A stretch of 64,000 nucleotides of DNA from Escherichia coli (GCF_016026235.1 NZ_CP065613.1), one strand, 5' to 3'. Shown: positions 56,101 through 59,100, counted from the stretch's first letter. Numbers are program-made.

Positions 56101-59100
56101 GGATACACCAGAGAACGATGCAGCCTTCCCCCGCCAGACACATGCCGGGAACCCGGCGCTCTACCCGCAGGTCAAAATGGTCTGCCAGATGGAACTGACC
56201 AGCCATCTGCTGACGGCTGCAGCCTTCGGCACGATGAAGAACAGCGAAAATGAGCTTGCTGAGCAACTTATAGAACAAACCGGCGATAACACTCTGACGT
56301 TAATGGATAAAGGTTATTACTCACTGGGACTGTTAAATGCCTGGAGCCTGGCGGGAGAACACCGCCACTGGATGATACCTCTCAGAAAGGGAGCGCAATA
56401 TGAAGAGCTCAGAAAACTGGGTAAAGGCGATCATCTGGTGAAGCTGAAAACCAGCCCGCAGGCACGAAAAAGTGGCCGGGACTGGGAAATGAAGTGACAG
56501 CCCGCCTGCTGACCGTGACGCGCAAAGGAAAAGTCTGCCATCTGCTGACGTCGATGACGGACGCCATGCGCTTCCCCGGAGGAGAAATGGCGGATCTGTA
56601 CAGTCATCGCTGGGAAATCGAACTGGGATACAGGGAGATAAAACAGACGATGCAACTGAGCAGGCTGACGCTGAGAAGTAAAAAGCCGGAGCTTGTGGAG
56701 CAAGAGCTGTGGGGTGTCTTACTGGCTTATAATCTGGTGAGATATCAGATGATTAAAATGGCGGAACATCTGAAAGGTTACTGGCCGAATCAACTGAGTT
56801 TCTCAGAATCATGCGGAATGGTGATGAGAATGCTGATGACATTGCAGGGCGCTTCACCGGGACGTATACCGGAGCTGATGCGCGATCTTGCAAGTATGGG
56901 ACAACTTGTGAAATTACCGACGAGAAGGGGAAGGGCCTTCCCGAGAGTGGTAAAGGAGAGGCCCTGGAAATACCCCACAGCCCCGAAAAAGAGCCAGTCA
57001 GTTGCTTAACTGACTGGCATTACACCGGTCGGCAGCCCTTTTTTATCTATGATAGTGATTACTCAACCGTAACCGATTTTGCCAGGTTACGCGGCTGGTC
57101 AACGTCGGTGCCTTTGATCAGCGCGACATGGTAAGCCAGCAGCTGCAGCGGAACGGTGTAGAAGATCGGTGCAATCACCTCTTCCACATGCGGCATCTCG
57201 ATGATGTGCATGTTATCGCTACTTACAAAACCCGCATCCTGATCGGCGAAGACATACAACTGACCGCCACGTGCGCGAACTTCTTCAATGTTGGATTTCA
57301 GTTTTTCCAACAGTTCGTTGTTCGGTGCAACGACGATAACCGGCATATCCGCGTCAATCAGCGCCAGCGGGCCGTGTTTCAGCTCGCCTGCAGCGTAGGC
57401 TTCAGCGTGAATGTAAGAGATCTCTTTCAGCTTCAATGCGCCTTCCAGCGCGATTGGGTACTGATCGCCACGGCCCAGGAACAGCGCGTGATGTTTGTCA
57501 GAGAAATCTTCTGCCAGAGCTTCAATGCGTTTGTCCTGAGACAGCATCTGCTCAATACGGCTCGGCAGCGCCTGCAGACCATGCACAATGTCATGTTCAA
57601 TGGAGGCATCCAGACCTTTCAGGCGAGACAGCTTCGCCACCAGCATCAACAGCACAGTTAACTGAGTGGTGAATGCTTTAGTGGATGCCACGCCGATTTC
57701 CGTACCCGCGTTGGTCATCAGCGCCAGATCGGATTCGCGCACCAGAGAAGAACCCGGAACGTTACAGATTGCCAGCGAACCAAGGTAACCCAGCTCTTTC
57801 GACAGACGCAGGCCCGCCAGGGTATCCGCGGTTTCGCCAGACTGTGACAAGGTGATCATCAGGCTGTTACGACGCACGGCAGATTTGCGATAGCGGAATT
57901 CAGAGGCGATTTCGACGTCGCACGGAATACCTGCCAGCGATTCAAACCAGTAACGGGAAACCATACCGGAGTTATAAGAAGTACCACAGGCGAGGATCTG
58001 AATATGCTCAACCTTCGACAGCAGTTCGTCGGCGTTCGGTCCCAGCTCGCTTAAATCAACCTGACCGTGGCTGATGCGCCCGGTAAGGGTGTTTTTGATC
58101 GCGTTCGGCTGTTCGTAGATCTCTTTCTGCATGTAGTGACGGTAAATACCTTTATCGCCCGCGTCATATTGCAGATTGGATTCGATATCCTGACGTTTTA
58201 CTTCCGCGCCAGTTTTATCGAAGATGTTTACCGAACGGCGAGTAATTTCCGCAATATCGCCCTCTTCAAGGAAGATAAAGCGACGGGTCACCGGCAGCAG
58301 CGCCAGCTGGTCAGAAGCGATAAAGTTTTCGCCCATACCCAGACCAATCACCAGCGGACTACCAGAACGTGCCGCCAGCAGGGTATCCGGGTGACGGGAG
58401 TCCATGATCACTGTACCGTACGCACCACGCAGTTGCGGGATAGCACGCAGAACAGCCTCACGCAGAGTACCGCCCTGTTTCAGCTCCCAGTTCACCAGAT
58501 GGGCAATTACTTCGGTGTCTGTTTCAGAAACGAAGGTATAGCCACGCGCTTTTAACTCTTCGCGCAGCGGTTCATGGTTTTCGATGATGCCGTTATGCAC
58601 CACCACAATGTGTTCAGAAACATGCGGATGCGCATTCACTTCTGAAGGTTCACCGTGGGTCGCCCAGCGAGTATGAGCAATACCCGTACCGCCATGCAGA
58701 GGATGTTCTTCCGCTGCCTGAGCCAGCATCTGGACTTTACCGAGGCGACGCAGGCGGGTCATATGACCTTCCGCATCAACAACGGCCAGACCGGCAGAGT
58801 CATATCCGCGGTATTCCAGACGACGTAAACCTTCAAGAAGGATTTCTGCTACATCACGTTGCGCGATCGCGCCAACAATTCCACACATAGTTTTTGATTC
58901 CGATTTATATCGTTGTCGGTCAACCTGTATGCCCGTTTTTTCGGGCGCCCCGAGCCTTGTAGAGAGTGGGGTTATTTTTATAGTTACTGCTTGTGGGAGG
59001 GAGATTATGTTATCTCCTCATCCCAGATGACCGGATTACCCGGCCAGAATTACTTTTTCTTTACCGGACGACGCCAGCCTTCTTTCTGAGTCTGCGGCAC

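Follow-up and report, generated by a model that had tools for sequence, protein, structure and literature searches.

The window analysed here is a 64,000-nt stretch of Escherichia coli DNA (GCF_016026235.1, NZ_CP065613.1) that carries a complete IS4 element on the plus strand at 55598-57022 (1425 bp), as delimited by its inverted repeats, its target duplication and comparison with other copies. It is flanked by two minus-strand genes, lpfA-O113 (54747-55319) and glmS (57059-58888), both names being taken from the annotation of matching E. coli records. The GlmS protein encoded here represents the universal allele of E. coli (79,430 blocks). Exact copies of the 13-bp sequence CACCGGTCGGCAG, in direct orientation, form the left (55585-55597) and right (57023-57035) target-site duplications. 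The left terminal inverted repeat (55598-55615, plus strand) is 18 bp long and reads TAATGCCGATCAGTTAAG; its partner on the right (57005-57022, minus strand) shows two mismatches to it. The TAATGCCGATCAGTTAAG repeat has two matches within the whole window, compared with 0.06 expected by chance, and a search of that full length found no further copy of the terminal repeat beyond these two. Removal of the element reconstructs an empty site, AAAAAGGGC-CACCGGTCGGCAG-CCCTTTTTT, which is the terminator hairpin of the lpfA/glmS intergenic region. The duplicated CACCGGTCGGCAG segment corresponds to the stem and loop of that terminator, in the pattern AAA-N20-TTT.

IS4 prefers hairpins resembling intrinsic terminators as its targets. 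The pattern AAA-N20-TTT is matched by 10 of 15 distinct reconstructed sites, where the duplicated bases span the loop and the inner stem; in the window, the target region concerned is at 55576-55597 and 57023-57044. This hairpin preference agrees with the IS4 target consensus described in the 1980s. The IS4 subgroup has likewise been credited with 'spectacular apparent insertion specificity' (PMC2266710), in line with the preference seen here. The identical position in the lpfA-glmS terminator holds different IS4 variants in E10/STEC17-190, 21AR0303, RMDEC465 and the lineage of the window, which implies a hot spot rather than a single inherited insertion. In GCA_040188935.1 (JBEAAC010000002.1, about 2880-4360), an IS4 occupies the glmS-terminator target in the opposite orientation. 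It lies 3 nt from a Tn7-like end, TGTGGGCGGACAAA, which we take to be that of Tn7, and dfrA/sat/intI2-like genes are next to it; this terminator has thus been used by two different mobile elements. In GCA_000193935.2 (AERO01000064.1), an IS4 adjoins glmS with the right flank of the window and an unrelated left flank that carries LacI/PTS genes. This copy lacks a target duplication and has A6 at the tract discussed below, together with a 7-bp duplication and a different one-base deletion; its flanks suggest an IS4-mediated rearrangement.

Upstream of the transposase ATG, an inverted repeat with the arms AAGAATCCGGAAAC/GTTTCCGGATTTTT, followed by a T7 run, forms a terminator-like hairpin (55644-55679, plus strand). 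By alignment, this hairpin and its T7 belong to every IS4 copy and are the same in the window, in K-12 and in the copies at the glmS site. The T-run is shorter in some long-read or Logan copies. The hairpin probably shields the transposase gene against read-through from outside.

The transposase gene of this copy is split. Its reading frame (55682-56497, plus strand) encodes 271 aa if read from the ATG and 277 aa if read from a TTG at 55664, and ends at a premature TGA (56495-56497). The cause is an A5 tract at 56467-56471 (plus strand; context GCACGAAAAAGTGG) in place of the A6 of normal IS4; the sequence at 56460-56500 reads CAGGCACGAAAAAGTGGCCGGGACTGGGAAATGAAGTGA. In an intact IS4, the A6 tract makes up codons 262-264, CGA AAA AAG. 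With A5, the transposase frame is left after Lys263 and translation ends eight codons later, so that the truncated product ends in eight out-of-frame residues, SGRDWEMK. For its C-terminal part, the transposase continues in the -1 frame, open at 56425-57009 (plus strand), which matches DDE_Tnp_1 profile positions 138-200 and overlaps the upstream frame across 56425-56497. An ORF of 171 aa runs in this frame from a GTG at 56494 to 57009. Insertion of one A yields a single ORF of 442 aa (ATG start) or 448 aa (TTG start), as a preliminary description of this DNA had predicted. That description had also placed the A5 tract and the stop where we find them, and the Y(2)R(3)E(6)K motif downstream of the break, where it indeed lies. 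It had further read the downstream part as a +1 frame open to 57009; the end stands, although the frame is -1, the AAA codon at 56468-56470 sharing its last base with the AAG codon at 56470-56472.

The restored 442-aa protein is an exact match to the recorded protein P0046, which is listed in 341 blocks of the collection. Its Pfam domains are Nterm_IS4 (residues 18-109) and DDE_Tnp_1 (residues 126-352), with E-values of 3e-33 and 8e-32. The catalytic triad of the restored protein is D133, D209 and E314, separated by 75 and 104 residues. The codons of the two aspartates (56078 and 56306) lie upstream of the break. The signature Y(2)R(3)E(6)K, here YSHRWEIELGYREIK (56599-56643, plus strand; residues 307-321), includes the catalytic Glu E314 (codon at 56620); both E314 and the signature lie downstream of the break and are out of frame in the sequence as written. 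The 271-aa product retains Nterm_IS4 at residues 18-109, and its DDE_Tnp_1 match stops at residue 251 (126-251), covering profile positions 3-116 of 200. DDE chemistry is impossible for a transposase product without the catalytic Glu. The truncated product has neither this residue nor the YREK signature nor the C-terminus, and is therefore predicted to be unable to cut or join DNA. The preliminary description had likewise expected an inactive product, and had supposed that this copy would be immobile unless complemented. Judged by its domain content, the 271-aa product would be catalytically dead, although it would retain the DNA-binding domain at the N-terminus (that of IS4) and, of the catalytic residues, the first two Asp.

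The window element is an IS4 on all structural criteria tested except an uninterrupted ORF, which it misses by one base. The 18-bp inverted repeats have the -AATR ends that mark the IS4 subgroup (PMC2266710, Table 1), the 13-bp target duplication falls within the 10-13 bp given for IS4, and the length of 1425 bp falls within 1400-1650 bp. The family is defined by its DDE spacing and the Y(2)R(3)E(6)K signature, and by a transposase gene without frameshift, organised as a single ORF (PMC2266710). The restored protein has both the Nterm_IS4 (PF13006) and DDE_Tnp_1 (PF01609) domains, and its triad fits the pattern D(60-110)D(100-150)E, the Glu being embedded in Y(2)R(3)E(6)K. The single ORF is what this copy lacks, being split at 56467-56497. 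This failure is a defect or a miscall in the window copy and does not imply another type of organisation.

IS4 is common in the species: a megablast search found it in 2686 of 5426 complete E. coli genomes, with top matches that are 99.9% identical and 1426 bp long. The identification as IS4 made in the preliminary description is borne out by this level of identity to many copies, one of which differs by a single base. That description had also given 1426 bp as the normal length. This figure now rests on the annotated K-12 mobile element at 4502090-4503515, which is 1426 bp long with A6, and on five further IS4 copies of the same length. Alignment to an IS4 reference, proposed there as a check, could have shown A5 to be the reference state; the K-12 reference has A6. 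The K-12 IS4 (insG, b4278) resembles the window copy in its inverted repeats, the length class of its target duplication, its Nterm_IS4 and DDE_Tnp_1 architecture and its YREK motif, at approximately 99.6% nucleotide identity. The two copies differ by six substitutions and, in the window, by A5 instead of A6, a length of 1425 bp and a split ORF. Another close relative is the mug-rpoD copy of the EIEC strain CFSAN029787 (WP_000483770.1/P0046-type), which equals the window copy at every base except in the A-tract, although it occupies another genomic site and is an intact 1426-bp element with A6.

A6 is the normal state of the tract and A5 a rare deviation. An 81-nt probe across the tract matched 3923 places in 1850 E. 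coli records, of which 1846 contain the single-frame A6 form alone and four contain the A5 form. At the identical lpfA-glmS site, E10, STEC17-190, 21AR0303 and RMDEC465 all have A6 (4/4). A look-up of the restored 442-aa protein showed the A6 form to be widespread, all matches returned being at other loci. The exact 44-nt A5 sequence was absent from the species-representative genome collection that was scanned. Exact protein look-ups of the 277-, 271-, 171- and 151-aa pieces were also performed. They returned no assembly on record with the exact 271/277-aa or 171-aa fragments at glmS-lpfA; the matches lie elsewhere, mostly in Shigella drafts, where the 277-aa and 171-aa fragments agree exactly with deposited proteins, e.g. 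EFZ52778.1 and EFW50576.1.

Frameshifted IS4 copies, including the exact A6-to-A5 form, are thus already present in public annotation, and the case in the window is an ordinary one. The four E. coli records with A5 (FDAARGOS_536, XH992, ECOD1 and 23CRST013) are all annotated as 'frameshifted' by PGAP. Like the window copy, these and the Shigella-draft copies show the A6-to-A5 contraction and a truncated product; unlike it, they lie at other loci, and many have additional one-base homopolymer deletions. Of the four A5 copies found in complete E. coli genomes, three (L007, L009 and L010) have one or two such extra deletions each. The numerically adjacent assembly accessions GCA_040188885, GCA_040188935, GCA_040188945 and GCA_040189005 each have A5 at a different locus, on contigs of >4.7 Mb, and several of the A5 copies in these four have extra homopolymer deletions, with some flanking genes fragmented. 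The extra homopolymer deletions in many of the other A5 copies suggest assembly error. At two loci, A5 alleles are probably real and inherited: the matP-ompA copy has A5 in both XH992 and 23CRST013, and the glgP-glpD copy has it in both K-404 and a Logan assembly. In S. flexneri 2457T (AE014073.1), the glgP-glpD copy has A6 and is without the G that corresponds to window position 56517, whereas the copy of GCA_000268025.1 has A5 and keeps this G; either the two have undergone independent frameshifts or one of them contains a sequencing error.

Other differences within the window concern neighbouring genes. The usher gene lpfC-O113 (about 51421-53943, minus strand) has a premature stop at 52543-52545, with an A at 52545 compared with C in FDAARGOS_943, so that the 840-aa usher is cut into two pieces, one of 466 aa and the other of about 320-350 aa. 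At least 18 contigs, including Logan assemblies of sequencing runs (presumed short-read), carry the exact 466-aa fragment of LpfC, and the stop is therefore a real marker of the lineage. The lpf operon, which encodes a long polar fimbria, is probably non-functional. At 1069-1090, the window reads GG where FDAARGOS_943 reads GGG (coding strand, position 1088), in a minus-strand gene at 549-2164; as a result of this indel, a PTS EIIC-EIIB gene is broken up into two ORFs that overlap, one of 365 aa and one of 177 aa. At least 24 contigs, among them Logan assemblies and a lineage that is 1.6% divergent, carry the split form. The 1088 indel was considered as a sign of sloppy assembly and rejected, as the same state on at least 24 contigs marks a common polymorphism. 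FDAARGOS_943 has no IS4 and carries IS2 in bglH and in an lpfD-like fimbrial gene (17745-18973 and 30449-31677), at sites that correspond to window positions 39328-39332 and 50616-50622. It also has internal stops in yidB and yidE; the window has neither these stops nor the IS2 insertions. The contrast implies that the two sister lineages gained different IS insertions and pseudogenes within about 0.06% sequence divergence.

The lpfC nonsense codon also served to locate sister assemblies of the same clone, by means of the exact 466-aa LpfC fragment. One of these, GCA_900449985.1 (an NCTC E. coli with a 4.56-Mb contig; LpfC fragment protein STM03889.1), covers window positions 46543-59942 with 0 mismatches over 13,401 columns, the sole difference being one extra A in the tract. 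Its lpfA-glmS copy of IS4 agrees with that of the window in insertion point, orientation, target duplication and flanks, but has A6 and an intact 442-aa ORF. As this assembly is otherwise identical, A5 is private to the window assembly. Because the IS4 copies nearest to that of the window occur in EIEC and Shigella, a Shigella origin was considered, and was rejected since this locus-identical assembly is labelled E. coli. A second sister, GCA_002466675.1, is identical to the window across 1-12164. The tract A apart, these two sister assemblies thus show no difference within the clone over about 25 kb. Two Logan contigs of the lineage, from assemblies built from sequencing runs that are presumed to be short-read, both end at 55625, 28 nt inside the IS4. 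That they stop inside the element implies that IS4 is multi-copy in this lineage, and a 64-kb contig that passes through it must therefore rest on long reads or finishing.

We infer, with a probability of about 0.55, that the missing A is a homopolymer consensus error, technical in nature, inside a multi-copy repeat; the actual element would then be a normal IS4 of 1426 bp whose 442-aa transposase is intact, A6 having been written as A5. We lean towards such an error over a real, recent mutation. The preliminary description had named homopolymer error as the main alternative to a genuine frameshift, and the A6 of GCA_900449985.1, in a sequence identical over 13.4 kb, raises its weight. At near-zero divergence, a real indel in one given A6 run, a priori rare, is estimated to be much less likely than a leftover homopolymer error. 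Repeats are where short-read polishing performs worst, and the contig crosses a multi-copy IS4. A5 at this tract recurs elsewhere as an assembly-type call, often with other homopolymer deletions, and the window copy itself is without other decay, equals the CFSAN029787 copy and encodes, once restored, a protein with an exact match on record. A very recent slipped-strand deletion of one A, which would leave this copy a transposase pseudogene, is nevertheless a serious competitor, quite possible if short of probable. The element would in that case have kept both inverted repeats and could move only with transposase supplied by an intact IS4 elsewhere in the genome. The quality of the surrounding sequence argues for a real deletion and against an error. 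Over 62.6 kb outside the IS, the window differs from FDAARGOS_943, the closest complete genome, by 37 substitutions and a single indel (at 1088), with clean flanks and no private indel. Outside IS4, private length changes are absent from every homopolymer of 6 nt or longer (57 runs) and from every one of 7 nt or longer (18 runs), so that errors cannot be common throughout the assembly. Inside the element, neither the T7 run nor any of the five other 5-mers is altered, and there is no second homopolymer error. Close by, the lineage carries a further inactivating mutation that is genuine, namely the nonsense codon of lpfC at 52543-52545. Elsewhere, at matP-ompA and glgP-glpD, the change from A6 to A5 also seems to have been inherited or to have independent confirmation, the alleles there being probably real, and PGAP routinely calls such copies 'frameshifted'. 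Against a real deletion stand the A6 of the otherwise identical sister and the lack of any assembly on record with the exact A5 fragments at glmS-lpfA. With no other decay in the copy, the event would also have to be extremely recent.

Two further explanations would give the A5 tract a function, and both are far less probable than either an error or a simple deletion. It is very unlikely that a real A5 reflects a recurrent mutational switch at the A6 tract of IS4. The 271-aa protein, keeping the end-binding domain, would then inhibit intact copies trans-dominantly, as the Tn5 inhibitor protein does, and rare slippage to A6 or -1 frameshifting would restore activity. If this were true, the recurrent A5 copies in Shigella and E. 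coli would represent self-damping instead of decay or error. Still less credible is a functional A5 that yields low levels of full-length transposase by -1 ribosomal slippage or by transcriptional slippage, where tRNA-Lys would slip on CGA AAA AGU and the 271-aa protein would serve as a regulator, as in the two-ORF layout of IS1/IS3. The downstream ORF is indeed in the -1 frame and overlaps the upstream frame at 56425-56497, and a slip from AAA at 56468-56470 to AAA at 56467-56469 would give back the RKKW of the wild type. Runs of A are known to be slippery in E. coli, as in dnaX, IS1 and IS911. The junction CGA AAA AGU, however, is not an X XXY YYZ heptamer: only the Lys codon in the P site is able to re-pair, and the tRNA-Ser in the A site cannot do so in the -1 frame. 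Nor is there a stimulatory RNA fold, as the 58 nt downstream (56473-56530) give z = +0.5, with 130 of 200 shuffles folding at least as well, and the wider 121-nt region is no better than its shuffles (z = -0.2). A run of A5 is also short for transcriptional slippage. The two-frame layout is not kept among copies, A6 with a single ORF being found in >99.8% of records, and a frameshift-free transposase gene defines the IS4 family (PMC2266710). Programmed frameshifting was rejected on these grounds, namely the lack of a heptamer and of structure, the prevalence of single-ORF records and the family definition.

For annotation, the element is best called IS4, with its transposase marked as frameshifted or possibly miscalled. 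If the missing A is an artefact, it illustrates that single-base homopolymer differences in multi-copy insertion sequences are typical residual errors of long-read assembly, and differences of this kind inside IS repeats should not lead to a call of pseudogenisation without reads anchored in the flanks. If A5 is real, the window would hold one more decayed insertion-sequence copy, of the kind that annotation pipelines already flag as 'frameshifted'.
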